Source of the DNA: Paraspadella gotoi
Taxonomy: Eukaryota; Animalia; Chaetognatha
Direction: 5' to 3'
Assembly: GCA_051294375.1 (NCBI GenBank)
Contig: JBJCIZ010001666.1
Coordinates: 112,725-148,429, forward strand
DNA: 35,705 nucleotides
The notes beneath the pieces are model-generated. The model made no database searches, was not told the DNA's origin, and saw nothing but the letters and a program-made list of their open reading frames with translations. The translations under genes and the position numbers were made by a program. Shown here one piece after another: positions 4,540-33,162 of the stretch; position 1 is the first letter of the stretch, and every line of letters starts with the position of its first letter.

Positions 4540-5000
4540 GCTAGCATTTTTTTTTTATCGCGTATTTCGCGAGAACTGCACGAGGCAAAGTTACGATGAA
4601 TCATGGCTCGCGTCTGACGTCAGCAGGGGGCGGTTTTCGTAGGCGGAGCACTGGCCAGTTGCTCAGCCTTGGACTGGAAAGAACGCCGCTCCGGTGCGAT
4701 GGAAAAAAAAGAAAATATCCGGGGCGCCAGAGAAGTGCGCGGGCGACTTCCGGTGGGGCGGGGCGTTTCCAGGCGGCGCCGCCGCACTCTCAAAGTCGTC
4801 GGTAGCCGAGGCTCGCACCCATCTGGCTATCTGGTTGCCAACCGACCTTGATTGTTTATGTTTATTAGTTCTCTCATTTCTCAGCCGGCGCTAAAGGGGC
4901 GTTGTCCGCCTCTTTGCGCAACTTTCTCATTGTGCGTCTGTGAACCACGCGACGCGCGGCGCCATCTTCTGGTTCTACTAAATATTCATCGCCTTTTTAT
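4540..5000. promoter_or_regulatory. CpG-rich promoter-like island
   Basis: GC/CpG-rich in an AT-rich background. Contains ACTTCCGG (ETS-like), GGGGCGGGGC (Sp1-like), CGCCATCTT (YY1-like) and TGACGTCA (CRE-like). No transcript evidence. Confidence 0.35.
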
Positions 5001-5056
5001 TTATAACAGACGCTCGTTCATATTTTGGGTATAATTTGAACTCAAGAGATTTGACT

Positions 5057-6400
5057 TTATTCGGCTTTTCTTTTTTGTACAAAATTTCGCCAAATCAAAA
5101 CTTTTTCTCCTATTTGATAATCGACTATGTTATTTAGAATTAAGCTGGGCGTCGTTTCTATATTACGAGCCCGGCATATTTTATGTAATAGGGCCTCAAT
5201 TCTAAAATTTTTCTCTGCCAAATAACTCTCACTCGAGCCCTCTGGCGGTTCCGCCTCGGCGGTTTGAGAGCAAGGTAAGACTGGATCACGCCCATAGAAA
5301 AGTTGGTGGGGTGAAACCAGCAAATCGTTTTCGATTTTTATGGGTGCTATGTTTACCGCCCTTACCACCGATCACCATGTTTTAGTCCAAGGCTGTCCCG
5401 ATGGTTGTAAACGCCGAAACAGGGTAATTAAGGTAGCGTTCACTTTTTCAGACAAGTTCGAATTTTTTTGTGATGGTCTGAAGAAGTTACAAGTAAAGTG
5501 AAACTCTTTTGAAGCGTTTCCATTATGGTATTTGATATTCTCTACCTAGATCTGATTCTATGGTTCTAGGCGTTAGAGAATAACTATTTAATATATCCAT
5601 AATGGCTGTTGTTACTGTCTCTGCCATTTTGTTACGCAATGCTGCCGCAAAAACATAGCGGGAACAAATGTCAACCACTATGAGAGGGAATCTTTTACCT
5701 TCGATCTCTTCCAATTATAATAAGTCAGTATGTAATGTACTCCCAATGGCTGAATCAAAAATTGGGAATTTTCTCCCTTTTGTTAATTTTGCTTTTTGCG
5801 CTAAGGTGCAATTCTGACATTTGTGAAAAACTCTTTCACAAGTCGATTTTAAGTTGACAATGAAATATGTTTTGGCAATTGCACACTTCATCCTCGATGG
5901 GTTAGTGTGAGCTAGGGAGATATGTATGGAGGAAACTATGCGATCAGCGGCTGATGGTGGCACCACGATCGCGAGATATTCAGAGTTATCATCATTGAGA
6001 CCTGAGTAGTATAAGGTCCCGTTAATGACTTTGAGATTTTCTCTAATACTCAAAAGATGGTTAAGGTATTTAGATCTGACTCTTTCCACGTGATTTTCTG
6101 GTTCAATCCCTGTCGTGAGGACCTCAATTACTGCCACTGTGTCACTACAGTTGCTTTGCTCTCTTGGGAGGTCCTCATCTGAGGGAGAAACTTTTTTACA
6201 CTTAGTGATTTCGCCATTGGCGGCCGCCGCTACAGCGCTTCGAATTATGGCGTCGCCTCTGTCAAAATTGACTGGAATCACCTAGCAGACAAGGTTCTCG
6301 GCTTGTTGCTCTTCCATTCTCAGGCACATTACTCAAGCGCACAAGGCCATCCTAACTCCTTCAATACTCAGTGATTTTGGTATTTCGATGTAATTCCTTC
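5057..6400 (-). pseudogene. Degenerate Ty3/Gypsy-like (or Ginger-like) integrase
   Basis: H2C2 zinc domain (IHISLAH...CQNC), DDE core (LHTDL*, IVVDICSRY, IESDLGREY, RPSQKNSNLSEKVNATL in a shifted frame) and SPHQLFYGR. In-frame stop at 5715-5717 and frameshifts near 5523 and 5370. Confidence 0.85.
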
Positions 6401-8891
6401 CTCAGTATCTGCGCCGACCAAAATCCATTCATTGCGTATGCGCCGCCTCAAAACTCGCCTGGTATTATGCTGGCTGAATCATCATCCCCAGGGCGTGATC
6501 TTTTAGTCGGGAATCTGGTTTTTTCAGCTCCCCAGGGCTGATTTTTCAGCTGTTTTATCAGTATTTAAGCTCTGATTGTATATTCTAGTGATTTTGTTTG
6601 TATCAATTAGCTTATCCTCTTTATTGATACAGGGTTGATCAGATATGCTCTATCACCAGAGATTTGAGCTCTTAATAGAGCATGATTGTCAAGCTTTTGA
6701 GTTATTTGCGGTCAGGCAGCCAAAAAGTTTTGGTTCTGTTGACTCTTCCTCAATCTGCTGCTTCTGCTTGTTAGATTTTAACTTCTGCATCAGGCGTTTT
6801 GATTGCCTTGTTCTTTTCTTGGCATATCCTTCTGCACTTTCCCTCTTATCTTTTTGGCCTAATAATGCAACTAAGGGGATTTCGTTCTTTTATGTTGTGA
6901 CAAAGTTGTTGATCACAACAAGGTCATCAGAAGTGTCAGGAGTCCCACTCTTTGTATTAATGTAGCACATTTGTCTACTGCCCTAGTGTTATTAGAGACC
7001 ACATCCTCAACATGGTCAGAGCGATTTTGTCTCTAGAAATGCTTTCAGATAGAGGCTCAACCCTGACAGGCCCGAACCCTCTCTCCTCCCCGGGACCTCT
7101 CTTCCCGCTTCAACGCCTCCTCCTCCCGTCGTCGTCAACCCTCCTCTTCATCGCACGTTCACGGCGCATAGGTCTTGGAGAATCCGGACTTACTCTCTTC
7201 AAACTTCTCCTTCGGGTCTCGCGTCTGGAAAACCTTGCCCTCTCCCTTTTTCTCCCCTTTTTATGTACCCATTGATATCCCTTTTTCTGTTAGTATCTGT
7301 TTCCATTACGCCTATTAGTTACTACCTACTTACCCTCTTTCTTCCTCGATGAGAACGGTAGTTAGAACCTACCTTTAGCTAGATACCCCATCTTCCAGTG
7401 ACGCCCAATCAGGCCTCTCCCCAAGGTAGTAACCTTCCCCAGGATTAAGTTTCCCTGCTCTACCGACTAACTGGGCTAACCGGAAAACCCTCCCAACCCA
7501 CCCTATTTTTTTTTCTTCCATCTTTCCTAATTTTAAAATTTTTTTTCATCCTAATTCTTCTATCTTTCATCGTGCTAAAAAAACAAACTTTTAACTCTAC
7601 CTAATATTTCGCACCAAAAAAATTTTTCTCCTCATCGCGCAAAAACGTTTGAAAAATAAATTTTTTTTCAAATCAACGCCAAGGAAAAGACGAAAAACAA
7701 AGAACCTCACCCATCTAACTAAACCAAACAGTAAGATCACTAACCCACCCTTTTTCTTTTTAGCTAATCCGGGACATTTAGTGTTGTACTGTAACATAGT
7801 GAAATCATAATTTCATTTTTATTGCAATAAAATGTAATGTATTTTCCCTAGTTTTCTTCCTCATTGTTTTACAATTTCCCTTAGTCTCTCTTACTTTATT
7901 TCCATTTCAAACGGAATTGCCCTATTAAATTTCCTTATTGACCATTCCTTTTACTTTATTATTTGTCTCTCTATTTCAAATATATTTTCCTAGTTCATTA
8001 ATTGGCTTCTATTTCAACTTTTTCCTCACTGTTTTTTCTCACCGTCCTACCCCACACATTATTTCAGTTCTAATCTGTACTATTATTGTTTCATTTTAAC
8101 CCACCACTCCTTTTTCATAGTTCCACTATTATACGTCGCACAGTATTTCAATTTCTATCTCCCTTCTCAGTGATTTACTATTTCAACATCTATTTAGATT
8201 CTTATTGCTACACAATTTTACCTCACCATTTAGAATTTTCTTGATTCACTAATTTAACTAACTATTACGATTTTCATTGAATCACTATTTTCATCTCACT
8301 ATTTCAATTTTTATACATTCACTATTTTGATCCACTCTTTCGATTTTTATTGCTTCACAATTTAACACACTATTTTGACTTACACTATTTCACTATCCTA
8401 AACCTTTTTCAATCTATCTCGATCTTTTTTTTCCTAAAAAACGACCATCTGTCTCTTTTTACTTACCCTATCATCCTTCACCACCTCTTCGCTACCTCCC
8501 CCTCTCTCTCATCGATGGTTTCGAATCGCGCATTCTTTTACTAACCCTCCCCTCCTTGACCCGTGAGTCGATCCTCGATCCCAGCGTCTTTTTTTTCGCG
8601 CATTTTCTTCATTTACTCTTCTTCCCGGCCTCCTCTTCCTTCTCTCCTTTACGCTGCACCTCTCTCTCCTCATCCCTTCCTCACTCGAGAAAACAGCTGC
8701 GCAGGGAGGAATGTCCATGCTCTGATCAAAACGACGACCCTCCCACCACCCCTGGCCCCTCACTGGCCCCTCACTCGATGCTCACCCTCTCTCTCTCTCC
8801 CATTTCGACTTCCAAACCCAAAAAAGATCGTTGACCGCTCCCTTCTCTTTCTCTCTGGTAGGAATAAATGTCCCCGCAGAACCCAGATGAA

Positions 8892-10449: not shown

Positions 10450-10593
10450 TGACCTTTGTTTTTTCCATTCAAATTCATTTGCATAATTTATCATAATTCG
10501 ACGTTCTGAAATGATCTAAGTGACTTACTGACAAGAATTTTTGGTGGGACCGACGGATCGACAAAGTGGATTATAAGCAGATCCGACTAAAAA
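10450..10593 (+). mobile_element. HINE-like 3' fragment
   Basis: GCATAATTTATCATAATTCG...GGACCGACGGATCGACAAAGTG...GCAGATCCGACTAAAAA. Confidence 0.7.
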
Positions 10594-10595
10594 TT

Positions 10596-10791
10596 GTCGG
10601 TTTTCCATCACCAACCCAGGAGGTTGCAATATTCGAATACTACTCTATCAAATTAATCTTAATGAAGGGAATATTGCACAGCACCACCTTAAGCATTGGC
10701 TAACGATTAGCATATACTTTAAAATGGTGCTAACCGACGTGGTGACGTTTTTTTTAAAGTGGTTTCGCCATTGACTAAAGCCCTAGTCCAC
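10596..10791 (-). ncRNA. Putative unknown pseudoknotted structured RNA, copy 1 (3' of SGNH gene)
   Basis: Conserved blocks shared with 13055-13195, separated by sequence-unrelated hairpins. Compensatory changes in two long-range helices. Confidence 0.65.
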
Positions 10792-11098
10792 TAATCCATA
10801 AAAAATAATAGAATAGTTATATTAATTTGAAAAGTTAACTGTGCTTCGATTCATTGACTCCCCTGGGCATCAATCATGGAAAATTAAATTCATTCTAATG
10901 TTACTAATACAAGCTGCAAGCCAGAGTAAGTAGCAATAAAATTATTATATCATTGCCGTACTATATTTGTTATTTCGTCTTAAAAAGTGAAGATTATCTT
11001 TTGTTAGCCTTCGAAACCAGAACCTTCTCTCAGATCATATTTCAATTTATTTCATGGACATTTCACCGCATGTGAGATATGCCCATAAGCATAACCCA

Positions 11099-11710
11099 TT
11101 ACATAAAATAAATTTTATAACAATTAATGATTTCATTTACAAGTAACTCATAACCTGCAAAATTGAGATGTAAACCATCAGCTCCAACAAATCTTTTGCC
11201 TCTATAAAATGTCATTGTATTAACTCTAAAAATAGAATCCTCGTGACAGGTACAAGAAAAATTATTTGAATTCAATGCATCAATAACTTTATTTACATCA
11301 TCTATATAATCTTGATGTAAAGACTCTGGAAATCTTGTATATTTATCTTGATTAACTTTTCTTGGGCACAACGGAACATAAATAATTTTCAGCTTTGGAA
11401 ACCTTTTAATCAAGTCACATGAATATTTCCTAATTTTTGTGGATATACGCTCACCAATAACTGTAGGCATGTCGAAGGTTGAATTCACCTCAAAACTTAT
11501 ATCATTTTGAGCTAATGATAATATCAGTAATGTATGTTCGCTTTTTAAATTTTTCCAAATATAACCACTCTCGCCCAATAAATCCGTTATGCAAGCACCA
11601 GAATAAGAATGTAATTCAATTTTTTTCAATTTACAAGACTCGGCAATATATTTAAAATGCATCTTATGTAAGTTTTTAAGCATACTATCAGACAAAACTA
11701 AGGCAGACAT
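11099..11710 (-). CDS. SGNH/GDSL-family hydrolase (esterase), 203 aa
   Basis: Uninterrupted ORF with block I LVLSDSM (catalytic Ser; SDS instead of GDS), block II YSGA, block III LAQNDI and block V DGLHLN (DxxH). Confidence 0.85.
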   Translation of the reverse strand: MSALVLSDSMLKNLHKMHFKYIAESCKLKKIELHSYSGACITDLLGESGYIWKNLKSEHTLLILSLAQNDISFEVNSTFDMPTVIGERISTKIRKYSCDLIKRFPKLKIIYVPLCPRKVNQDKYTRFPESLHQDYIDDVNKVIDALNSNNFSCTCHEDSIFRVNTMTFYRGKRFVGADGLHLNFAGYELLVNEIINCYKIYFM

Positions 11711-11906
11711 GATTTATGGCATTGGTTAATCTAAATGAAAAATAAAAATAAACATTACAGCCAATTCAAACAATAAAATAGAAAAAAAATCATTTTATTC
11801 ATCAAATATAACTTAATAGGGAAGTTGAAAACAAATTCCAATGACAAATATAATTATTTCTTTTTTGTTTTCTCTTTCAAAAAAAAAAAGATTAATTAAT
11901 AAATTG

Positions 11907-12135
11907 TGGCAACACATTCACTTTCGCCACCCGCCTGTGTCCTGCGCAGCCCCGGTGGCGTAAGAGTGAGAATTCTCTCTTCCCAACAAACGGTCTTGGG
12001 TTCGCGCCCCATTGGTGTCAACTAGTAAGCAGAACGAGTCGTCTAACCCACCTGTAGCGGCGGACTGCAGTCTGAGCCGAAGTTCTGAAATTAGTAAATA
12101 ACAGTCGTAGTTTGTCCTGTGGCACTGACTTGAAT
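11907..12135 (+). mobile_element. tRNA-like SINE family B with degenerate twister core (12021-12095)
   Basis: A-box-like GTGGCGTAAGAGTG and B-box-like GGGTTCGCGCCCC. Homologous to 26647-26835. Confidence 0.7.
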
Positions 12136-12836
12136 TGTCGGATCTGCCCACGATCATTAGCGGTAATTAATTATTAATTATTTAATTAATACAAACTAAA
12201 ATAATAATTTAAATAATAAATTAATTAATTTGTTTTTAGGTCTTTCGTCGCTGACCAGGACAAAAGCAACGACGGCGACGACGACAATAATACCGATTAA
12301 ATAATTAATTTATTTATAAATATATTGATTGATTGAATAATTAATTAATAAATAACTAAATAAATTTATTGATTGAATAATCTATTGATTGATTAATTGA
12401 CCAATTAAATAATTATTATTTAATTGACTAATTGATTAATTAACTGATTAATTATTTGATTACATTTGATTTACATTTAATATAAAAGAAAAAGAAGCAT
12501 AATCAATTAGTGAAACCGTTTTTTTGTTTTTTCCATTTAAACTCATTTCCACTCAGACGATTCCATCCAAACTTGATTTCCAGCTTAATCACACACTTTC
12601 CACATACAAAATTTCAAGTCAATCGCCCCATCCACTTATGAGTAATTGGAGTTCAAATAGTGAAATAAATTTTTTTGTTCTTTCTATTTAAACTCATTTC
12701 CACTCTCCTGATTCCATCGAAACTTTATATCCAAGTCAATCGCACGCTTACCTACCCACACACAAAATTTCATTCCGATCCATCCATCCAATCACGAGTA
12801 ATTGTTGTTTTTTGCTAAGGTGGGACGGACGGACAT
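12136..12836 (+). mobile_element. HINE-like element, 5' subTIR to microsatellite, with AT-rich expansion
   Basis: TGTCGGATCTGCCCACGATCATT start, core CATTTAAACTCATTTCCACTC repeats, GGGACGGACGGACA. Confidence 0.6.
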
Positions 12837-12846
12837 TATTATTATG

Positions 12847-12929
12847 AGAATTATCGTGATTTATCGTCTGATTAGCTGATAACCGCTTAATTAATAATTA
12901 TCGTAGCCATTGTTTGCTCAAACTTGTTT
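12847..12929 (-). mobile_element. HINE-like 5' end fragment
   Basis: Reverse complement AACAAGTTTGAGCAAACAAT...CAGCTAATCAG..GATAAATCACGATAATTCT matches 17922-17990. Confidence 0.65.
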
Positions 12930-13054
12930 CATAATTATGAAATAATGATAAAATTATGCATTCCCTCAAAAAAGCCGCGAAAAATATTTTCGGTACTTCT
13001 ATGTTTACATCTCCACATCCAAATAGGCATACAAATTGATAAGTTTGGTCCTGC

Positions 13055-13195
13055 GCCGGTTTTCCACACCAACCACAGGGGGATACAATATATATGTTTA
13101 TATATATTGCATTGTATCAAATCATAGTTGATACAAACCGGCTCGGTGTCGTTTTTTTTAACGTGGTTTCGCCACCAAAGGTAGCCCTAATCCAC
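13055..13195 (-). ncRNA. Putative unknown pseudoknotted structured RNA, copy 2 (3' of transposase gene)
   Basis: See copy 1. G-U pairs in several stems favour the minus strand (same sense as the genes). Confidence 0.65.
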
Positions 13196-13469
13196 ATTAT
13201 AGTAAATAATATCCAAATTTTCGATCCACAAAAAATTTTAATAATTATAAACTGCTTTGGAATGTATAAATAATAATTTAATAATGTTCAGACAACCTCT
13301 TGCGGTTAATAATCTAAACCCATTTAAAATTATAATCACTATTGATATAATACATTGAATACCTTGAATAATTTTCCATTCATAATTTTTATGATATTTT
13401 ACGCTAACTGGCTTAGGGTGGATTTTTAGCAATGGTTGAAGTTTGCCAATCCAAATGGTCAATCAAAAT

Positions 13470-13640
13470 CAAGGGAACACGTAAACAACCTTGTGATTAA
13501 CATTATTTTAATTTGGTCAATTTTTTTAGATTAATAAATCAAATCAATCATCTTCAAGGGAACAAGTAAACTACCTTGAGATTGACTTGAGGTAATTTCA
13601 TCAACCTCAAACAAGGGAACACGTAAACTACCTTGTGATT
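13470..13640. repeat. Three spaced 29-nt hairpin repeats
   Basis: CAAGGGAACA(C/A)GTAAAC(A/T)ACCTTG(T/A)GATT at 13470-13498, 13555-13583 and 13612-13640. Stem CAAGG/CCTTG. Confidence 0.85.
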
Positions 13641-13692
13641 GCATATTTTGAGGTTAAAATTTCAAAATATAGATTGTAGCTATCAATAGCTT

Positions 13693-16600
13693 TTACAGTA
13701 ATATAATATTACCTTTCTTAATCTCATTCAAAAGCTGAATCCTGACTACTCTTTGATTTATTTCAGTAATGAAAACATTTTTCTTTTTTTCAGTGTTTAT
13801 AACATCAACTACTAATCCATTTTCCCAATATTCTTCGCTATCTGTTTTTACTTTTTTTTGAAATTCACAGTTAATCAATTTTTTGGGTTCTTTAAGGTAT
13901 TTTTCATACATAGTTAAGGTTTTCTTTACTTTTTGTTTTCTTAAAGCCATTTCGATCTTTTTCGAAGTACTCGATAATACGAGTCCAGCTGCTTCAGAAA
14001 CATCACTGGTACTAAATGATTGTTCCTCTTCCACATCGAGAGTCTTGAGTAATGGGTTTTCTTGATAAATTTTACTCAAATGATTTAATTTTTCTTCTAA
14101 TGAGTATGTGCGATTCCGTTTAGTTTTACAAAAGACATCTTTGCTACTACAACTGGCATTGCAAACTTTATTCAAAAATTCAATATGTAAATTCAAAGCT
14201 GCAATCTTTTGCTTTGGATCAATAATTACATGTAACTTATCATTTACTTCCTTTTGTACCCACGGAGTTCCATATTTTTGAGTGAATTGGCGAATTATTT
14301 CTAATTTTCTCCTTCCTTGTACTTCCTCACGTTCTAATTGAGAGTCAATCTTTTTTTTTCTTTTTTCTAATAGTTCACTTTGATAATTTTCAAAAATAAT
14401 TTTTTCCTCCTCTCTTCTTTTCTTGAAAGACTTGAGTGCAGTGTCAAGAATTTTCTGCTGTTCTGGTAATGATTTACTATCAAGATAATCCATTGGACGA
14501 TTAGTTATCATCATGACACTTGTCTCTACAGTAGTAGGTTTGGCGGTTGGTTTCTGGTTAATGATATGTCGAGTCAGTCCAAATATTGATTCGCCCCATT
14601 GATTTGTTGTAGGTACGCTGGATGTTTGATCAATAAAATTTGGCTCATCTTGAAGAATATCCATATCTCCACCACTTAAAAAATCTTGTGCTTGAGTAAC
14701 TAAAGTGTACAATAGTGCCCCACTAATCATTTTTGCAATATTTAAAACTTCATTTCGATTAGGATCATCAGTTGGCATAATTTCTAGCATTTTTGTTACT
14801 CTCTCTTTTTCCAAGAATGCATCCGAAAAAGGTGATTGGCCAGCCATCATTTTGGATGCATCTATTTTAATTTCATTGAGGTATTCGTGAAGACATTGCA
14901 AATGAGGAATTAATTCTAAAATATGGACGTTAGTTTTACTGTATCCATCGCCAAAAGCTTTACCATAAAATGATCTCCATAAAGGTGAAATAATCAGAAC
15001 ATCATACAGTGCTATTGCTCTTAGTTGGTTCAGAGTTAGTTGGTCATGGAGGTCGAAGTTAATTGATTGAAATATCCTTACGCTATTCTCATTTTCAAAA
15101 AAATGAACAAGAAGATCTCGATTAATGATTATGCGTGTCGCAGCAGCAAATTCTATACCAGCACGACTGTGCTCAAAATGAACCATATTTTCCAATTTAT
15201 GCTTTTGACAAAATGCTTTAAAAACAGAAGATCTTCTCCATAATTCTTCTCCATGATGTGGAAAACAAACAGATGATATATTCTTTATAATACGCTGAGC
15301 TGAAGGCGTTTCTGATTGATACATATGAGGGTTGTGTTGTTGGCATTCAGCTTCAAATTGAGTCAAGCTTTTTAACATGGAAGTTCCAAAATTACTAATC
15401 AAGTGTAATTTACAATAAAAAGTATTTATTCGACTTAGTTCAGAAAGTTGTTCTTTGTTTAGGTTTTCATTTGCTTTCAGAGTGGGCAATAAGTCCTCTT
15501 TAAATTTCTTTAGCTCATCAGCAAAAGCTCCATTCACCGGAGCCTGATCTGTCATTGTATTGCTAATCTTGCAAATGATTTCTGCAATATCATTTAACTG
15601 TTTACCATCCTCTTTCAATCCATTATCAATAATATCAGTAAAAGTTTCATTAATATATCTTAGCAACGACTTTGCATCTTCATGGGTAATAGAACGGAGT
15701 CCTAAATTAAAAGTATTTGTTCTTGAAATTAATAATTTTAATATAATGTACAATTATATAATGTTTCAAGTTTAATTCAAATTTAGGTATAAATTAAAAT
15801 AAATGTCTAAAATGTACTATACAACTATCAATAGCTGACCAAATTTATATTTTAATGGGAAAATCATTAAACAGAATTAAGCTTTGGAAATCAAATTTAT
15901 GACCCAACCCATTGACATAGATTTGCTGTGATACAAGTATTAGTATTAATATCTATAATATATAAAATTTTATATTGATTCTTACCAATTACATAATGTG
16001 AACCATCAGAAAAATGCAACTGAGTTCCAAGAAAGGTTACATTGTTATGAGTCGCTGAATCCATTGCTAAGGTAATATCTTTTTCAGCTTTAATTTTTTC
16101 ATTTACTTGTGTCATTAATAATGAATGGCATTCGGTCAAAACTCGCGAAATAAACGTTGTTGAAGGTATTCTGCTCATTTCAAAACCAGTTATACGTTTT
16201 AAAACGATATTCATTGCCTGGGGAATCTTTTTTGCTGGAACCCCTTGCTCAAATAAATTCATAACACAAGTACGAATCTCATTTTGATACTTACCATCAG
16301 AGAAAATATGATATTCTTTATCTTGAAGAGAATCAATTATTTGCTCTAAGGCAGTAATTTCTTTATTTCTAATTTTTAATTGTTTTTCAAAATGGTTTTC
16401 TTTTTGCTCTAGCTCTGAGTTTTTCTCCACTATTTTATTTCTTAACAATTTACATAGATATCTTTGCTTTAGAAATTTATTCTGATATTTGGACTTGGCT
16501 TCTTTTTCTTCTTTCAACTTTCTCAAAAGAATGCTTATCGTTTTATCTTTTTGCTTTTGTATACCTTGTTCAATATTCATCCTTTCTTTACCTTTGTTCT

Positions 16601-17522
16601 TTATTTCAGCAATTTTCAAATCTTTCCTGACTTTCATTCTGTAGTGAGCTTGCTTCAAAAACTTATAGGAATTTGAAATTTTTTTTCTTTCTTTCATATT
16701 CTCTTTTAATTGTGTCATCAGCTTAGAATTTTCAGTTAATGGTTTTTCTGAGATACATTGAGAAGAGCTTATAACAGAAGGATCAGATTCCGAACAGATC
16801 TCCATTGGCATAATTATTGGATCTATTAAAAAAAATTTTATTCCATTGTAGCTTTTAATATAGTCATTTTTAGTTGTGCCGCGACTAAGCGCGGAGCAAC
16901 TCTATAACTCACTTTTGGGTTGCTCTATCCTAGTAACGTTAAAAATATTCATTACTTTATCAATTAATTTTATTTGTGGTAAGAAGGTAAAGTACTATTT
17001 AACCTCTAATATTCACATATATCATAATTGTGTCTCCTAATAATTTTTTAAATTTATCAAATGACTCAAAATTCACTTTTTTTATGATACAAAAAGTCAA
17101 AAAAATTGAAACAATTGCTAGCACCTTTTCTTTTTAAAAAAATTGGACAGGGAATAAAGATGATTTACAACGTGCCTGTCAAACATACACAAAAATATGC
17201 GTGATTAGAAAGTGACTGTGGTGCAACACAGTTGAATGTCGGTTCTTATTTTGAATTATTGCAAAGTTTAACTTTCTATACATGTAGATTAGAAAAAAAA
17301 ATTACCATTTATTTCACTCTCCAAAAAAAATGGTGACTGCAGATACACTTCGCGTCTCGTTGTTTTCAATATTTTAACTCTATGCCTCACATATCGTACT
17401 CTTCGAAGAAGTCTGTTATCACATAAATTTGATATATCGAATTTATTTTTTAATTTGTTTAGCATCGAAATTGCATTAAGACCATTAACCAACTCTAATA
17501 TATTTTTTATATTATTTTCCAT
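13693..17522 (-). CDS. hAT-like DDE transposase, 3 exons (17522-17306, 16822-15986, 15701-13693), 1020 aa
   Basis: Two GT-AG phase-1 introns join three ORFs in frame (..SEIN/DPIIMPM.. and ..SHYVI/GLRSI..). Lys/Glu-rich coiled coil, then ITLAMDSAT (D1), NTMTDQAPVN (D2), FYCKLH (CxxH) and VPTTNQWGESIFG (E, hAT-dimerisation-like). No stops or frameshifts. Exact superfamily uncertain. Confidence 0.8.
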
Positions 17523-17921
17523 TTTATACTAATATTTCATGTATCAGATAAAATTCGATCCCAGCACAACATATATATGAAACATATAAAATAAATGCAT
17601 GTCTTTTCCACCGTCGTCGCCTTCGTCGTCACCTCCATCCTCATCTGACTTCATTTTTCAGTCCCACCTAATTCTGTGAATATATAGATAAATATATGGT
17701 CATATATATTTCTAGAGTATAATGTACTCAAAACAGCCTTATCACCCACGCCATTACAATAAGTTTATAATGCCAACAAATACCAAAACAATAATCCGTG
17801 AATTGGGATAAAAAAGCATACTCAGAAATTTCAATGATATTAGCGTAAGTAAATTTTTCATTAAACAAAATGATTGTTTTAAGATAGTTAATGAGACTAC
17901 TATTTTTTTAAGGTTTATTTA

Positions 17922-18556
17922 TAACTAGTTTGAGCAAACAATAATTAATCGGTAATCAGCTAATCAGTTGATAAATCACGATAATTCTTTCAATTTGTGA
18001 TCCTAATTGATCTGAACAGATCGTACCATACAAAATCAGTGGCTGCGCCAATACATGTAAATCGCATGCAAGGGATTAGAGTAAACTTTTACTATGGTAG
18101 AAATAATTACAAATAAAGTACAAATAATTTTTTAACTATTATTTTTTTTTCAACTTGCATCATATTTTCCACTTGCATCATTTTTTTAACTTGCCTAATT
18201 TTTTTCAACTTGCATCTTTTTTTTTATCTAGCTCCATTCTTTTAATTCGCAATCATTTTTTTAACTTTGCTTTTTACATTTAAACTCATTTCCACTCGCA
18301 CGATTCAATCGAAACTTTATATCCAGCTTAATCACACACTTTGTTACAAACACACAAAATTTCATTCCAATCCATATATCAAATTGGAGTTTTTTGCTAA
18401 CGGGGGACGGACATTGTTTTTTTCTTCTTAATTTATCATAATTCGAAGTTCTGATATGATAATAATGATTTACCGACAAAATTTTGGGGTGGGACCGATG
18501 GACCGACAAAGTGAATTATAGATTAGGAATCTGCTGATAAGCAGATCCGACTAAAA
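17922..18556 (+). mobile_element. Near full-length HINE-like element with internal 18-nt minisatellite
   Basis: AGTTTGAGCAAACAAT start, (TTTTTTCAACTTGCATCA)n at ~18145-18220, core, GGACGGACA, terminal ATCTGCTGATAAGCAGATCCGACTAAAAA. Confidence 0.7.
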
Positions 18557-18789
18557 ATGATACCGCCGGCAGCAGAAAAGCTTAATATTCTAGTATTGAA
18601 TTGCGATAATTTTATTTTTATTTCCCATAATATTAGAAGTTTGAAATTTTTTTTTTAATCAAAGCCCCCTTTTTTTGTGCTACTGAATCAGCAGACACTC
18701 GTGCAGAGAGGTGGAAAATTAAAAGAAGGTTTCGATCAACGTTATGGTGTGGCAGCAAGTCTTAAAGTTGCCTCACTGCTGTCCGTCGG

Positions 18790-19569: not shown

Positions 19570-20512
19570 AATTTTACAAGCGCCGGTAAAAAAACGCTGC
19601 CATTTGCAAACCCATGAAGATTCTTTCAATATTAAATATGAAATTAAGGGTAAAAAATAAAAATATTTTTGTATGCAAATTTTATATGATTCGACTTTGA
19701 TATGCCTTAGCAATGATAGCTGGAAGATAGATTTGAAAATCGTCTCGGATTTTTAAACTCATTGTTTTTAGATTGGATTTTTCTCTCTTACTTTCAGTAA
19801 GTTTTTTGAAGAAATTTTACATAAAATAATAATAATATTATTATCTTCTGAAAGCCCTTGCAAATCTTAAGAGAATGATGTACTTACGAATACTGTAGTA
19901 TAAAATTTAACCGGCCCAGCTTTAATTTAATTAGGATAGTCAAAAACGAGACATCTTTCCAAAAATCAATAGCTGGAGAGTAAATTAAAATTTTTTATCA
20001 AATTGTGATAGGCTATCTTAAATATTTTTTTCTTAGGCTCTTTCATGATACTTATATAAATAATATTTTATATTATAATAATTTAAACGAGTCATATATT
20101 TTTTAAAAAAAAGATTAAAAATTTTAAATAATTTACTTTTAACTTTCTTAATTGAAACGAGGCTGGGCAGCTTAATTTTTATGTTAGAGCTTTTGTAAGT
20201 ATATCATTCTCTTCACAATTTTAAGGGCTTTCAGAGGATATTAATATTGATAATAACTTAATTAATATTTTGTCTTAAAAAAGTGTTAAAAGTTTAAAAA
20301 AAAAAATAATTTAAAAACAGTGAGTTGGAAAATAAAACCCCATTTTAAAAGCCAACTTTCTCCACTCATTGTCAAGGCATATCTTAACTGATCAATATAA
20401 AATTTAAACACATAAATGGTTTTAGTATTTTCTACTCAACTAACTTTTAAAATCAATGAAATAACTACTGGTTTACAAATGGCAGCGTTTTTCTACCGGC
20501 TCTTGTAAAATT
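19570..20512. mobile_element. ~940-bp fold-back/MITE element with long imperfect inverted arms
   Basis: AATTTTACAAGCGCCGGTAAAAAAACGCTGCCATTTGCAAACC / GGTTTACAAATGGCAGCGTTTTTCTACCGGCTCTTGTAAAATT. Inner arms also pair (~19845-19890 vs ~20190-20240). Confidence 0.75.
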
Positions 20513-20545: not shown

Positions 20546-20748
20546 GCGGCCATTGGTGCCGGAGTCAAGTCATTCGCCTCCCAACCCAAAGGTCCGGGGT
20601 TCTAGCCCGGTAGTCGTCTGGCAGTTAAGAGGGATGGGGCGCTTAACCCGCCTGTAACATGGTGTTACAGCCTGATCCGAAGCTCAGGGACTGCTTATAT
20701 TGAACGGTTCTGTCATTAACACATAACAATAATTACTGTCTCTTCAAA
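20546..20748 (+). mobile_element. tRNA-like SINE family A containing a twister core
   Basis: TGGTGCCGGAGTCAAG A-box-like, GGGTTCTAGCCC B-box-like. Second copy at 30418-30561 plus 31170-31228. Confidence 0.75.
20621..20694 (+). ncRNA. Twister ribozyme, type P5 permutation
   Basis: P5 GCAGTT/GACTGC; GATGG; linker GGCGCT; T^AA (20644/20645); CCC; GCC; P3 TGTAACA/TGTTACA; G; P4 CCTGA/TCAGG; L4 TCCGAAGC. Confidence 0.75.
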
Positions 20749-20749
20749 T

Positions 20750-20960
20750 TGTTAGTAATTGGAGTTTTTTCCAAAGGGGAAATGGACACACGGACGGACA
20801 GACAGAAAGACGAACAGTTTTTTTTTGCATAATTTATCATAATTTTATGGTCTAATATGATGTAATTGATTTACTGACAAGATTTAGCAGTGGGACCGAA
20901 GGACTGACAAAGTGGATTATAGATTCGGAATCTGCTGATGAGCAGATCCGAACTAAAAAA
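20750..20960 (+). mobile_element. HINE-like 3' fragment
   Basis: GGACGGACAGACAG microsatellite and TCGGAATCTGCTGATGAGCAGATCCGA terminus. Confidence 0.7.
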
Positions 20961-25818: not shown

Positions 25819-26085
25819 AACAAGTTTGAGCAAACAATGCCGGATCTGCACACGATCATTAATGGTATGCAGCAGATGAGATAATTAATTAACCAACACA
25901 CAAAATCGTCCTATACACTCCTATAGACAGTAATTGGCGATGAAAGCTAAGTTGGGACGGACAGACGGACGGACATCAGTTGTTTTTTTTCCATAATTTA
26001 TTATAATTCGATGTTCTGACAATATTTAACTGACTTACCGACAAAATTTTGGGATGGGACCGACGAACCGACAAAGTGAATTATA
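25819..26085 (+). mobile_element. Internally deleted HINE-like element
   Basis: AACAAGTTTGAGCAAACAATGCCGGATCTGC start, GGACGGACAGACGGACGGAC, GGACCGACGAACCGACAAAGTGAATTATA. Confidence 0.7.
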
Positions 26086-26646
26086 AATTTGACGTTATGG
26101 ACATAGATAAAAGTAATGAATCCTCCAATTTTAGATTTACTTATCAAATAATTTCACGGTTTCCCGGTGCTGCTTTGACGGAGGACTTGGATCGGACTCG
26201 TCAGTTTTTCTGTGAATTATTACAAATAAATTAATGAGGCTAAATAAATAATTATGAATAAGTTTCTGCTGCATTCTCATTTATTTTGAACATAAGTCAA
26301 AAAGCCCTAGTCCTTTTTAATCTTCTTATGCTTTAATCAACAAAGTGTAGTAATAAAATTCATAAATTGTTTAATTTAGTCCCAAAAGAGCTTTATCTCC
26401 CTGTATAAACGACTTACCATTTATAAATTAATTAAATATGACAAGATGGATATCTTAGTGATAATAATTAAAATGTTTCTAACCGTTTAGGTCGAGCTCC
26501 CAAATGTTCTCTTAAGTCCCTAAAAATAGGAATGATATTAAACATTATATTCGGAGATAAGTAATAGATTCTCTTGGAATAAAAGTTTGTCTTTGGATTT
26601 GTAAAATGCCATATTGAATATCAACATTAAGATAAATTAAACTTTG

Positions 26647-27330: not shown

Positions 27331-27997
27331 TCAAAGATGAAGCGTTACTATTTTTAAGTAATGAGTAATAATATTTGTCAAAGATGTTTCGGCCCGACTG
27401 ACTCTCTTTTCCTACGTTTAATCGTATGGTTAAATTTAGACTCTTACTTTTTATGGTCAGGTTTTTTGTGGTCAATGAGTTACAACCGCGTTTTTCGAGA
27501 GAGAAAATGAAACCACATTTAGTTTTCGCTTGAACTCTCATTAAATTGTATCTTCACAATATTATTTAAATAAGTAGATAGGGATTTCAATATTTAAAAA
27601 AAGGGGATTTTATTCTAGAGAAAATAGACAATAACAAAAAGGTTGAAGTGACTGAGAGGAGAGAGGGTCGCCATGCCTCTCGGTGAGTGTGGATAGCCCC
27701 CACACTTAGTGTGCCCAGTGGGTCTGGGAGACTAATGCTGAGGGTCTTCGGTATTTTTTCCCCATTCCGTTCCGTTCCCATTCCGTTGAAATCTCCTCTG
27801 GTCGTAGGTTTTATTAAACTTCTTACTGCCTCATCCTTTTGAAAAAGATTATCTTTGGTTTGATTTTCCGCAGACTCTCCTGGTTTTAGGTGCCAGTCTC
27901 TTAAGAGGCGTGCTTTTGAATCCAACCACTACAACCACATTTAAGTAAGTAGACAGAGTTTTCAATATGAAACCAATGTGGATTTTAAGCTCTTATA

Positions 27998-28189
27998 TAA
28001 ATTTTCACTATAGGAATTCTGGGCTAAGTAAGAAAAAACTTTTTTTTACAAATATTTCGGCATATATTTTTATGCCATCATCATGTTATTGCTTTACCAC
28101 TGATGATGGCATAGAAATACCTGCCGAAATATTTGGGAAAAAAAAGTGTTTTTTGTTACTAAGCACAGAATTCCTATAGTGAAAATTTA
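27998..28189. mobile_element. Penelope-like inverted repeat with minimal hammerhead (28097-28136, +)
   Basis: Arms TTCACTATAGGAATTCTG / CAGAATTCCTATAGTGAA. CCA-CTGATGA-TGGCA..TGCC-GAAA-TATT-TGG. Confidence 0.7.
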
Positions 28190-29287
28190 CATTAGATCTT
28201 AATATACTCCCTGTGCTTGTGATGACGTTTAAAGAACAAAGTAGATTTTATTTTCGAGAAAATAGTAATTAACAAACGGAGTGAATAAAATCAGAAAGTC
28301 AATTTATAGAGAGAGTATGGATCTACGACACGGATAAAGTTTACCGACAGACAAAAGCCCGTTCAGAAATTGGCCGGTGCCATCGGTGGCTTGAAAAATG
28401 AGAGAGTTGTATTCTTTTTCTGGCGAATTTTATTTTGGTCACCGATCCGATTCCGGTTCCGGTTTGTAATTGATTTAAATTCAGTACTCATTCAGAAAAT
28501 TAATTATTATATTTTTTATACTTTGTATACAATTTATTATATTTGTATATAAATTTTTGTACTGACGTTGATAGGGCATAACTTGTAAAATTTATTGCCA
28601 AATCAATACAATGCATTTCATAACATTGCGAGTGTAGAAGTACATTTATTATCAATAACACAATATTATTAGACAGAGACATGTTGTTAATCAGAAAGAT
28701 GATGAGAGAACTAAAGGAAGAGAGTAGTTTTTAACTCCAAGCTGACGGTGCCGCACAAACAGCGGCATATGTAGATCGTCTTGAAGGTTCTGGCCGAAAA
28801 GTTGGGCGTCGGGAGTGCCAGCCTGGAAACCCGAGGTGCCGGCCTCAACGTCGGCAGTACCAGTCTCGACATTGAAGGTGTCGGCCTGTACGAAGATGGT
28901 GCAGGTCTGTACGTTGATGGTGCCGTCCTGGACAACGTGGTAGAGTCCTAGAAGGTGGTGGTTTCGGCCTGCAAGGCGTCACTGGAGGAAGAGCCATCTC
29001 AAGATCGCGCCTGACTGCACGTATCGCTGCGATCGCGACTTCAATAAAACAGTGGGCGTCATTGACATTGGTCAAAGATTTTTGTAGAAAGAATTTTCAG
29101 AAGCGTTTTCGCGGTTCATGTTATTATCAATAACACAATGTTATTAGATAGAGAGACATGTTGTTAATCAGCGAGATCATGATTAAACTAAAGGTAGAGA
29201 CCGCGGCATTGACCAAGTAAGAAAGTGAGAGAAAGAGTGATCAGTAGCAAGCTTCCCGAGCGACCACCAAACAGTGGCCAACTGGGG

Positions 29288-30036
29288 TCAAAACCGTGGC
29301 AACGAAAAAGTCGTCGCCACACTAGGAATAATAAAAGCTTGTGTGTAATAATAAACGAGTAATTAAAAGCAACAAATTAAAATATTAAAGAAATGGTATT
29401 TGCAAACCTAGCTTTCTTTGCAGGAAGCGGAGGAAACTCGGACCCTTTAAAATATTTTATAACAATTACTTGCAAAAGAGAAAAGTCAATAAAAATAACG
29501 AATTCAAATTACTCTGTTGGACATAAACTCTCAGAATGGAGAGCAAGAGACGGAAAACCCCGCTCATCAACTCGACTTAAATAGAATTAAACATTGAATG
29601 ATAAAATTATTAATATATTATAGGACTCACTCTTGAGTTTAGAAGTCCACTTGCGACTTTCAGCATCTAGATATCAAGGAAATAATTATATAAATTAATA
29701 AAATTAAATGGAATTGTTTATTTTGCTGACAGACAACGAGTTTTTTTTTCATTTTCACAGAAAAACGTACATGTTTTGGCTACTATGCTAGCCTTCATCC
29801 GCGAAAAATATTAAGTTCATTATTTTGCGCTGATGAAGACTAGCGTATTAGCCGAAACATGTACGTTTTTCTTCTGAAATTAAAAACAAATTTGTTGTCT
29901 GTCAGCAAAACAAACAATTCCATTTAATTAGAATTTCAAACGCAACAAAACGATAAGCTCGAAATAATAACTCAAGTATTGAATATCATATGCATTTCTA
30001 TTTTCAATTACCGCCTTCAGGTGCTCCTGTGGCCAT
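29288..30036 (-). CDS. Candidate small multi-exon ORF of unknown function
   Basis: GC-richer islands bounded by AG/GT (30036-30012, 29666-29631, 29444-29408, 29321-29288) join in frame: MATGAPEGDAESRKWTSKLKRSEFPPLPAKKASVATTFSLPRF*. No homology recognised. Confidence 0.3.
29702..29929. mobile_element. Penelope-like inverted repeat with minimal hammerhead (29827-29866, +)
   Basis: Arms AATTAAATGGAATTGTTT.TTTTGCTGACAGACAAC / GTTGTCTGTCAGCAAAA.AAACAATTCCATTTAATT. GCG-CTGATGA-AGACTA..TAGCC-GAAA-CAT-GTA-CGT. Confidence 0.75.
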
Positions 30037-30417
30037 CTGGAAAACTGAGGAAAAAAATATTATAAACATAATATTATTCTATGATCAAATTAGAATATAT
30101 GTATTTCGAGTTTAATGCGATTGTCGACAAGAATGCCACGGAACGGGTTAAGGATTAAAAGCAGGCTTGGGGTTTTTCAAGGGTCATCACTGAAGATTAT
30201 ATGCTTATAGGCGGGGTTAATATCGAAGGAGACTCAGCCTCACCTAACGTTATCGGGCGATCGCTGCAGAATTTCACAAAATTGTGATTGGTCGAGATTA
30301 TTGAAACCAACTACAAAATGTAAAAATTCGGAGAAAAAATGTAATCAGTTTAGTCATTTTTTATAACTTTAACATAAAAATATCATAAAACATATTTTAC
30401 AAAAGATTCCTAGTTTT

Positions 30418-31228
30418 GGTGCCGGAGGCAAGTCATTCGCCTCCCAACCCAAAGGTCCGGGGTTTTAGCCCGGTGGTCGCCTGGCAGTTAAAGAGGACGG
30501 GGCGCTTAACCCGCCTGTAACACGGTGTTACAGCCTGATCCGAAGCTCAGGGGCTGCATATTAGGGTGGAGTGATGAAAAGATTGAGTGATGGAACAATG
30601 TTATTTGGCTGCCTTTGTATATGTAATAAAAAATAATTAAGCCCTTTTTGCATAACAGTATCATTAATTGAATTTTCTTTTAGTAATATCCTTATAAAAT
30701 CATAAAATTTCAAAATCATATTTTTTTAATTTTAAGAACTGTTTTGGATTCGCCGGAAAAAAACTGAAAAACTTTTGTAAAATATGTTTATGATATTTTT
30801 AGGTTAAAGCTGCAAAAAATGACTAAAACGTTTCATCATATAATAGTTTCTACTACAGAGCGTCAAAAAGGGGAAATTTTAACCTTTTTTTCAATTTTTG
30901 ATACTGAAGGCATTGAAATTATTAATAACATGTTTTATATTTTTTGATCTAATTTTTATGAAGAATCAGAATCTTTAATAAAAATTTTAAAAAAATTCTT
31001 TTGAAAATTTATTATTTTATAAGGATATGACTATAAATATATTGTAATTAATGATACTGTTCCCCAAACAATACAAGCAAAATATTTTTTGTACTCCTTA
31101 ATCATACGATCTCACATCTAAAAATCCTTGTTTGTTCACTCAAATAAAATTTATTATTGCTCCACTCTACTGCTTATATTGAACGGTTCTGTTCACTAAC
31201 TCATAACAATTATCACTGTCTCTTCAAT
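30418..31228 (+). mobile_element. SINE family A copy (twister core 30484-30557) split by a hAT MITE
   Basis: 30418-30561 and 31170-31228 rejoin to match 20555-20748. Confidence 0.8.
30562..31169. mobile_element. hAT-type MITE
   Basis: Termini TAGGGTGGAG / CTCCACTCTA with 8-bp TSD CTGCATAT / CTGCTTAT (1 mismatch). The empty site is visible in the SINE copy at 20691. Confidence 0.8.
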
Positions 31229-32982: not shown

Positions 32983-33162
32983 ATAAGGCAGTTTATTGTG
33001 GGATTTACAAGTCCAGTTTTTAAATTTTTTCTAATATTTCGATTTACATTGATAAATTATTTTTCAAGGCAGTCCAATTGAAAAATGATTTATCAATGTA
33101 AATCGAAATATTGGAAAAAATTTAAAAACTGGACTTGTAAATCCCACAATAAACTGTCTTAT
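32983..33162. repeat. ~180-bp near-perfect palindrome (MITE-like)
   Basis: ATAAGGCAGTTTATTGTGGGATTTACAAGTCCAGTTTTTAAATT... mirrored by ...AATTTAAAAACTGGACTTGTAAATCCCACAATAAACTGTCTTAT. Confidence 0.85.

Follow-up and report, generated by a model that had tools for sequence, protein, structure and literature searches.

We describe here an RNA motif encoded in the genome of the chaetognath Paraspadella gotoi, within a stretch of 35,705 nucleotides (nt) that we call the window (GenBank assembly GCA_051294375.1, contig JBJCIZ010001666.1, positions 112,725 to 148,429 of the forward strand). The motif occurs twice on the minus strand, copy 1 (C1) behind a transposase gene and copy 2 (C2) behind a gene for an SGNH-type hydrolase, and we conclude from its sequence that it is a real, selected RNA structure without a family, whose role in cleavage or at 3' ends is a prediction. 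The reading that we favour, at a probability of roughly 0.4, is that it is a self-cleaving ribozyme of undescribed wiring, which would process read-through RNA just past the polyadenylation (poly(A)) signal of each gene. What is observed directly, and what this reading builds on, are the helices common to both copies, matches to the pistol ribozyme env25, the position of the motif behind two genes, and the spliced transcription of the transposase gene from the same strand.

C1 (13055..13196, 142 nt) lies 497 nt 3' of the transposase stop codon and C2 (10596..10792, 197 nt) lies 307 nt 3' of the SGNH stop codon; they are direct, not inverted, copies, both on the sense strand of the adjacent genes. 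Read from 5' to 3', each consists of a helix P1, whose loop holds an extra A, the sequence YUAGG, a small hairpin and GAAA, followed by an A-rich linker, the 5' strands of helices A and B, hairpin 1, a single unpaired purine, hairpin 2, the sequence YCC-YCCUG, GGU, the strand A', GGAA and the strand B'. The 5' domain of C1 (13162..13196, with its C2 counterpart at 10792-10758) is closed by the 5 bp of P1 (13196-13192 with 13166-13162); the extra A after the 5' strand of P1 is followed by the 5' strand of a pseudoknot, UUAGGG (13190-13185), the inserted hairpin (13185-13171) and GAAA (13170-13167). The 12-nt linker, UUAAAAAAAACG (13150..13161 in C1, 10757-10746 in C2), is identical at 12/12 positions. 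The 5' strands of helices A and B occupy 13149-13143 and 13142-13136 in C1, and 10745-10740 and 10738-10732 in C2. Next come hairpin 1 (13135-13113), the unpaired purine (13112) and hairpin 2 (13111-13084) of C1, the two hairpins of C2 being located at 10731-10680 and 10678-10625. The 3' part (13055..13083 in C1, 10624-10596 in C2) comprises in C1 YCC, the pseudoknot 3' strand YCCUG (13080-13076), GGU, A' (13072-13066), GGAA and B' (13061-13055). Every element named in a preliminary description of this DNA was recovered on the minus strand where that description had placed it. By standard pseudoknot geometry, helices A and B appear compatible with an H-type pseudoknot having loops of 0-1 and 4-5 nt and both hairpins at the junction. 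The third long-range contact suggested earlier, between UAGG(G) and YCCUG, is predicted to pair at 5/5 positions in both copies, although the third G of UAGGG is also claimed by the inserted hairpin; the latter, previously described as a variable hairpin of both copies, forms just 3 pairs in C2.

The neighbourhoods of the two copies are alignable by BLASTN in a 5' block with 60/79 identical positions (E 2e-10) and a 3' block with 31/36 (E 1e-5). We take the structure to be under selection, because in a hand-made register the core is identical at 84/97 positions and the variable parts at 10/25 (the inserted loop at 2/9), and because 12 of the 44 predicted pairs in seven helices are altered and none is broken. 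Nine pairs are altered on both sides and three on one side, and the two-sided changes are located in hairpin 1 (n=4), hairpin 2 (n=2), and P1, A and B (one each), which bears out the compensatory changes claimed earlier for helices A and B. As the helices were read from the same two sequences, this count is descriptive and is not a significance test, and the case for covariation is built on two copies, the searches having yielded no others. The base of hairpin 2 has a conserved sequence (15/16), while hairpin 1 turns over; the latter had been thought wholly unrelated between the copies, but 8/16 of its basal bases are alike in a register that we chose arbitrarily. The flanks, on the other hand, are non-homologous, as had been proposed: in global alignments of 100 nt on each side, 446/500 shuffles scored as good upstream and 438/500 downstream. 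A descriptor of the A-B-A'-B' pseudoknot that constrains pairing and G+C only, with no sequence, matched C1 and C2 and nothing else in the window, gave 2 matches in total on 10 local shuffles of the window, and 0 in 157,075 bases of related transposase loci.

The folding z-score of C1 is -4.25 on the minus strand vs -2.91 on the plus strand; for the 3' part of C2 the values are -4.23 and -4.10, the 5' part of C2 by itself being unremarkable (0.30). With RNA parameters the minus strand folds 8-11 kcal/mol better than the plus strand (-48.2 vs -37.6 and -56.5 vs -48.6), whereas with DNA parameters the difference is about 2 (-24.0 vs -21.9 and -24.6 vs -22.9). Since the minus strand has nine G.U pairs as well as the lower folding energy, an RNA from this strand, which is the transcribed and spliced one, is favoured, in agreement with the earlier view that the G-U pairs point to the sense strand. 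Scanning the window with the Rfam models returned seven matches at E<=1, none of them on the motif and none at gathering score, and scanning the two copies at E<=10 gave 5 and 3 matches, a chance level; thus, no family was recognised by this route either. Taken as a whole, the sequence evidence supports a selected, structured, sense-strand RNA outside every Rfam family.

The comparison with the pistol ribozyme was made by eye against one sequence, env25 (Rfam RF02679; PDB 5K7C), as printed in PMC6101554. Allowing for the extra A and an 18-nt insert, the first 21 bases of env25 agree with C1 at 20 positions and with C2 at 18, and the pistol-like 5' block, by a pattern chosen post hoc, is found twice in the window vs 0 times in 200 dinucleotide shuffles. 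As in pistol, P1 is GUGG/CCAC, the loop YUAGGG pairs with a distant YCCU strand, and UUAAA follows P1 in both copies, equivalent to the start of pistol J1-2 with the conserved A19-A20-A21. Furthermore, the base of hairpin 2 equals the U-GCAA / UUGC arm of env25, with one unpaired purine before it in both copies, and so presents the R-U-GCAA / UUGY cleavage arm of pistol. The pattern of the pistol 3' arm is weaker (2 seen vs 0.475 expected); purine 38 and the general base G40 are kept, with G at both places in the same register. Both copies have R-U between hairpins 1 and 2, with the U paired with A, hairpin 1 being P3 by our mapping only; the G-U junction between P3 and P2 of pistol is conserved in length (excerpt of PMC6154101). 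Unlike in pistol, L1 contains the extra A and the 18-nt hairpin-GAAA insert, P2 and P3 are closed as hairpins in reversed order, and the A/B pseudoknot is added. Membership of the pistol family is ruled out, because the blocks are rewired and because R32, G33, C41 and G42, which carry pistol catalysis (G33 and C41 as a pair), read C, C, G and U in both copies. The likeness to pistol, which had at first been called superficial, goes further than that in P1, the pseudoknot 5' strand, the A-rich linker and the P2/cleavage arm, while the difference in block order stands. We therefore regard the motif as probably related to the pistol ribozymes and rewired.

If the motif is a self-cleaving ribozyme, UAGG of the P1 loop would kiss YCCUG, the A-run would pack on P1 as A19-A21 of pistol do, and hairpins 1 and 2 would stand in for P3 and P2 of pistol. 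The unpaired purine and the U between the hairpins would form the scissile step, with a pistol-type cut predicted from the pistol literature at 13112/13111 in C1 and 10679/10678 in C2. Helices A and B, as an H-type pseudoknot, would replace the covalent link from G42 to P3, so that the pistol blocks would follow one another as X-Z-Y instead of X-Y-Z, and the chemistry would have to differ from that of pistol because G33, R32, C41 and G42 are replaced. A candidate poly(A) hexamer, ATTAAA, is located at 13237..13242 on the minus strand, 41 nt 5' of C1, with a second one at 13282-13277; the only candidate 5' of C2 is the weak variant AATATA (10823-10818, minus strand), 26 nt before the start of C2. 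Poly(A) hexamers are frequent in AT-rich DNA, and these are candidates by sequence only. Read-through RNA would be cut downstream of the gene, which would help to end transcription, and cleavage would also separate adjacent genes in a compact mobile element. The more specific proposal, a non-circularly permuted descendant of pistol with a new catalytic core in an animal DNA transposon, punctuating each gene, is put forward tentatively, and we consider it rather doubtful.

A number of observations weigh against self-cleavage by a core derived from pistol. The four substitutions named above fall at catalytic positions: pistol without N7 of G33 loses >1000-fold (excerpt of PMC7027511), and an A32C change abolishes its cleavage (excerpt of PMC6154101). 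The setting also differs, pistols being found in Firmicutes near phage genes according to the same excerpt of PMC6154101, and the motif in an animal-like transposon. The Rfam pistol model did not match the motif at E<=1 in the window or at E<=10 in each copy, although a permuted block order would defeat this model; it also found nothing in four sets of genomes (0/1, 0/4, 0/151 and 0/151), and env25 is the single pistol sequence in the comparison. Among the candidate motifs other than hammerheads that were tested according to an excerpt of PMC10085705, 10/10 did not cleave. In addition, 39/136 candidate transposase relatives in metagenomes were confirmed, and the motif was found at 0/39 of their loci by a sequence model (R1) and at 0/39 by the pseudoknot descriptor; these relatives are only 23-48% identical, and many of the contigs end before the 3' flank. 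The association of the motif with the transposase and SGNH families, as claimed in the preliminary description, accordingly failed to appear at related transposase loci. Lastly, the pistol likeness may in part be pattern-seeking in a small vocabulary, and the partial fit of three ribozyme classes (pistol and the two considered below) is a warning against over-reading any one of them; of the three, pistol is the one whose fit is best controlled for chance, and it accounts for the conserved hairpin 2.

Other searches for relatives were likewise largely negative. Models built from C1 and C2 revealed no third copy in the window. A model of the 5' part (R2) applied to 38/39 of the related loci (L039, a near duplicate of L040, was left out) gave nothing better than E 0.43, and Rfam matched 0 of the 20/39 loci scanned; an R2 match in 1/151 prokaryote genomes (E 4.5e-4) was rejected, as it was without the motif blocks on inspection. 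Exact-pattern scans found 0 matches in three passes over viral contigs and 27 stretches, judged on reading to be chance, in another, 0 in metagenome contigs, and in prokaryote genome contigs 0 and then 4 without an Rfam match. BLASTN against phages listed 12 records at E 2-6, none covering >30%, and a search starting from the gene confirmed 0/155 and 0/78 candidates among viral contigs. Our literature searches turned up neither this motif nor any pistol from an animal, although supplements and subscription papers could hold one; the supplementary file of PMC10085705 has 0 occurrences of four motif words, its alignments possibly being elsewhere.

Sequencing runs were mapped to 12900-17900, a region that covers C1 and the transposase gene. 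Compared with the local contigs, C1 has a similar depth in the DNA runs (171 vs 169 in run X1, 16 vs 16 in X5, and 406 vs 386-398 in X4), and a true repeat near C1 reaches a depth of 35,141; C1 is therefore not a high-copy repeat at 80% likeness, which speaks against the genome-wide dispersal that the preliminary description had raised. Run X1 also contains a 622-nt contig that, at a depth of 4.5 against a local 169, matches the 5' part of the motif (13130-13196) apart from 9 differing letters and 1 gap; it is a probable third copy, from another organism or a rare element. A 4161-nt contig of the same run (depth 39.7) matches a conserved stretch of the transposase gene, 15521-15585, at ~80%, and probably represents a related element. 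In run X7, which shows splice joints and was guessed to be RNA, one contig (depth 24.8) ends at 13239 and another (depth 2.3) covers 12900-13033, with a depth of 0 in the bin 13067-13233; as this is one study seen through contigs only, we do not count the drop in depth as evidence of an end or a cut.

The main rival to a self-cleaving ribozyme is a non-catalytic structured element, which could signal the 3' end or termination, form a nuclease-resistant knot that shields downstream or read-through RNA, or be bound by the transposase or by a protein of the host; we see this as a serious possibility, if on balance an unlikely one. Elements of the ENE kind have a U-rich internal loop, and no such loop is present in the motif; a non-catalytic role would also leave unexplained the many segments that match a ribozyme in sequence, among them the cleavage arm found in the base of hairpin 2. 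It would, however, agree with the fact that no known catalytic core is complete, and with the candidate poly(A) hexamers that precede the copies by 41 and 26 nt. Moreover, small ribozymes are expected at 50-80 nt, a size exceeded by the 142-197 nt of the motif, and most of the structured candidates tested did not cleave (excerpt of PMC10085705).

An improbable explanation is a split, domain-swapped ribozyme like that of hepatitis delta virus (HDV), in which a tandem pair would have lost complementary parts. Ribozymes of this type (HDV, CPEB3, theta) form a nested double pseudoknot, P2 stacking on P3 and P1.1 on P4. The 3' half of the motif has the nested order P1-P2-P3/L3-P1'-GG-AA-P2', with A as P1, B as P2 and ACC-UCCUG-GGU as P3/L3, but neither P4 after GG nor the catalytic C, the J4/2 position reading GG-AA-B'. 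The 5' half would supply these through GGGC-hairpin-GGCGAA as J1/4, P4 and J4/2 with C75, GCGAA being confined to the 5' domain, and the cut would fall at the C-G step just 5' of helix A (13151/13150 in C1, 10747/10746 in C2). GGGC and UGGCGAA are found in both copies, and CCUCCU together with a 7-bp helix opening with G.U in C2; in the HDV sequence of an excerpt of PMC10377752 these three segments have the roles in question, and CPEB3 has G56-C57-G58-A59-A60 at the same place (excerpt of PMC4836649). The 3' pattern was seen 3 times vs 0.13 expected, whereas the 5' pattern is uninformative (7 vs 5.29). The G1.U wobble and U20.G25 of HDV, possible in C2, are absent in C1, whose P3 has 2 bp; L3 has 5-6 nt; two hairpins intervene between B, as P2, and P3, for which three helices would be competing stacking partners. 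This reading would also leave the sequence conservation of hairpin 2 and of the A-run without explanation.

As for hammerheads, there is no CUGA in either copy, and hence no CUGAnGA core strand. Two stem-GAAA-stem segments are hammerhead-like, one of which can be drawn with a U-A pair and UUH (A'-G-GAAA-B'), but the link of 0-1 nt between A and B looks too short, judging from the hammerhead fold, to connect stems II and III at their far ends. Terminons and Penelope-like elements have structured RNA motifs between open reading frames (ORFs) and GDSL-type cargo, and are retroelements with hammerheads; here, by contrast, the adjacent gene encodes a DDE transposase whose fold is Hermes-like. Natural non-circular permutations of hammerheads exist (type SGC/CSG, in an excerpt of PMC10085705), and these have in common with the motif the principle of rewired blocks with extra pseudoknots.

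We consider it distinctly improbable that the motif is a decayed relic, i.e. an ancestral ribozyme duplicated with the element, whose catalysis was lost and whose helices linger. The catalytic positions of every matching class are indeed missing, and the region is rich in inserted repeats and adjoins a broken Gypsy-like element; yet the same positions are replaced in both copies, both genes have open frames, and the inserted loop is near random (2/9) with 0/44 pairs broken. A folded end or recombination site acting at the DNA level, or a small dispersed repeat unrelated to the genes, is very improbable: although the motif adjoins a transposase gene, G.T pairs form in DNA too and the search for element ends in other places was negative, RNA parameters give a large strand preference and DNA parameters a small one, the copies are direct, Hermes-type transposases act on double-stranded inverted ends, and C1 is not high-copy at 80% likeness.

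In the product of the transposase gene (13693..16811, minus strand), a Hermes/hAT-like fold is followed at the C terminus by a Spindlin-like Tudor domain. The coding exons, 16811-15986 and 15701-13693, are separated by a GT-AG intron (15985-15702) and give ~944 amino acids by hand count; a further intron lies upstream (17305-16823). Run X7 alone shows three GT-AG splice joints on the minus strand in this gene. The predicted fold of the second coding exon has a mean confidence (pLDDT) of 90.4, and the model aligns with Hermes 8edg with Z 11.0 and a root-mean-square deviation of 4.8 over 274 aligned residues, bearing in mind that helical models can reach a Z of about 11 through common arrangement alone; Foldseek with the model found no match at E<=0.001. 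Within the catalytic set of D, CxxH and E, 66 sequences have C93 and H96 without exception and D48 and E367 almost without exception. There are 566 relatives at E<=0.001, the 150 listed among them being 21-39% identical, and the named ones come from Branchiostoma and Mytilus. The Tudor domain at the end of the protein (13696-13910, minus strand) has Z 8.3, and several relatives match Pfam Spin-Ssty; it is possibly a histone-mark reader on an hAT-like transposase. An alternative GT-AG splice in run X7 (15702-16294, minus strand; depth 9 vs 27.5) preserves the frame by hand count and drops 103 codons, including the region of the first catalytic Asp (AMDSA); the resulting isoform is likely catalytically dead, reminiscent of the repressor forms of the P element. 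In the 3' untranslated region of the gene (13459-13640, minus strand), there are three direct repeats of ~40 nt, which could be subterminal motifs bound by the transposase.

The SGNH/GDSL-type hydrolase ORF (11099..11710, minus strand) encodes 203 amino acids with the blocks SDS(7), YSGA(36), AQND(67) and DGLH(178), and has a candidate splice acceptor ending at 11731. It matches Pfam Lipase_GDSL with E 6e-4, under the curated cut-off; its Atlas neighbours, at 0.95-0.96, have GDSL families on 21-46% of their members. No homologue of the protein was found at E<=0.01 among 83 candidates, and a scan of viral contigs confirmed 1 relative, for which it gave no locus. That the transposase and SGNH genes form one mobile element is suggested by their common motif and orientation only. 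A pair of putative terminal inverted repeats (12847-12893 / 17942-17988) was rejected, since it belongs to a dispersed repeat that recurs in the window; no 8-bp target duplication was found around the transposase gene, and no element ends were seen elsewhere in the window.

The window as a whole is rich in AT, and spliced genes occur in it alongside many dispersed repeats. A broken Gypsy-like retroelement (~4900-7300, minus strand), in which an integrase zinc-binding domain was recognised (Pfam Integrase_H2C2, E 3.4e-7), is located downstream of C2. A dispersed repeat with GTCC microsatellites, which we take to be DINE/Helitron-like, is found at 10471-10612, 12523-12835, 18266-18557, 20809-20959 and 25955-26122, and one of its copies starts directly after the 3' end of C2. 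GC-rich dispersed repeats on the plus strand (20553-20698, 30416-30561 and 11888-12091) resemble, by our reading, heads of tRNA-derived short interspersed elements; ARAGORN found no tRNA genes in the window. Long inverted repeats at 19570-20512, 32983-33162, 29702-29929 and 27982-28205, two of which have sub-threshold Rfam matches to microRNA precursors, probably resemble miniature inverted-repeat transposable elements.

About a dozen classes of small ribozymes are known (12 in an excerpt of PMC10761166). Natural non-circular rewiring has so far been shown for hammerheads (excerpt of PMC10085705), and the motif, if a ribozyme of the kind proposed, would extend it beyond them. It would then also be, as far as we found in print, the first RNA derived from pistol in an animal genome. 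Most ribozymes known from the mobile elements of animals belong to retroelements; if one accompanies a DNA transposase gene, this would point to a part in ending transcription or in separating genes. A pistol scaffold with swapped metal-binding and general-acid positions would represent either a new route to RNA cutting or a non-catalytic use of a ribozyme fold, and either outcome would be informative on the evolution of RNA folds.

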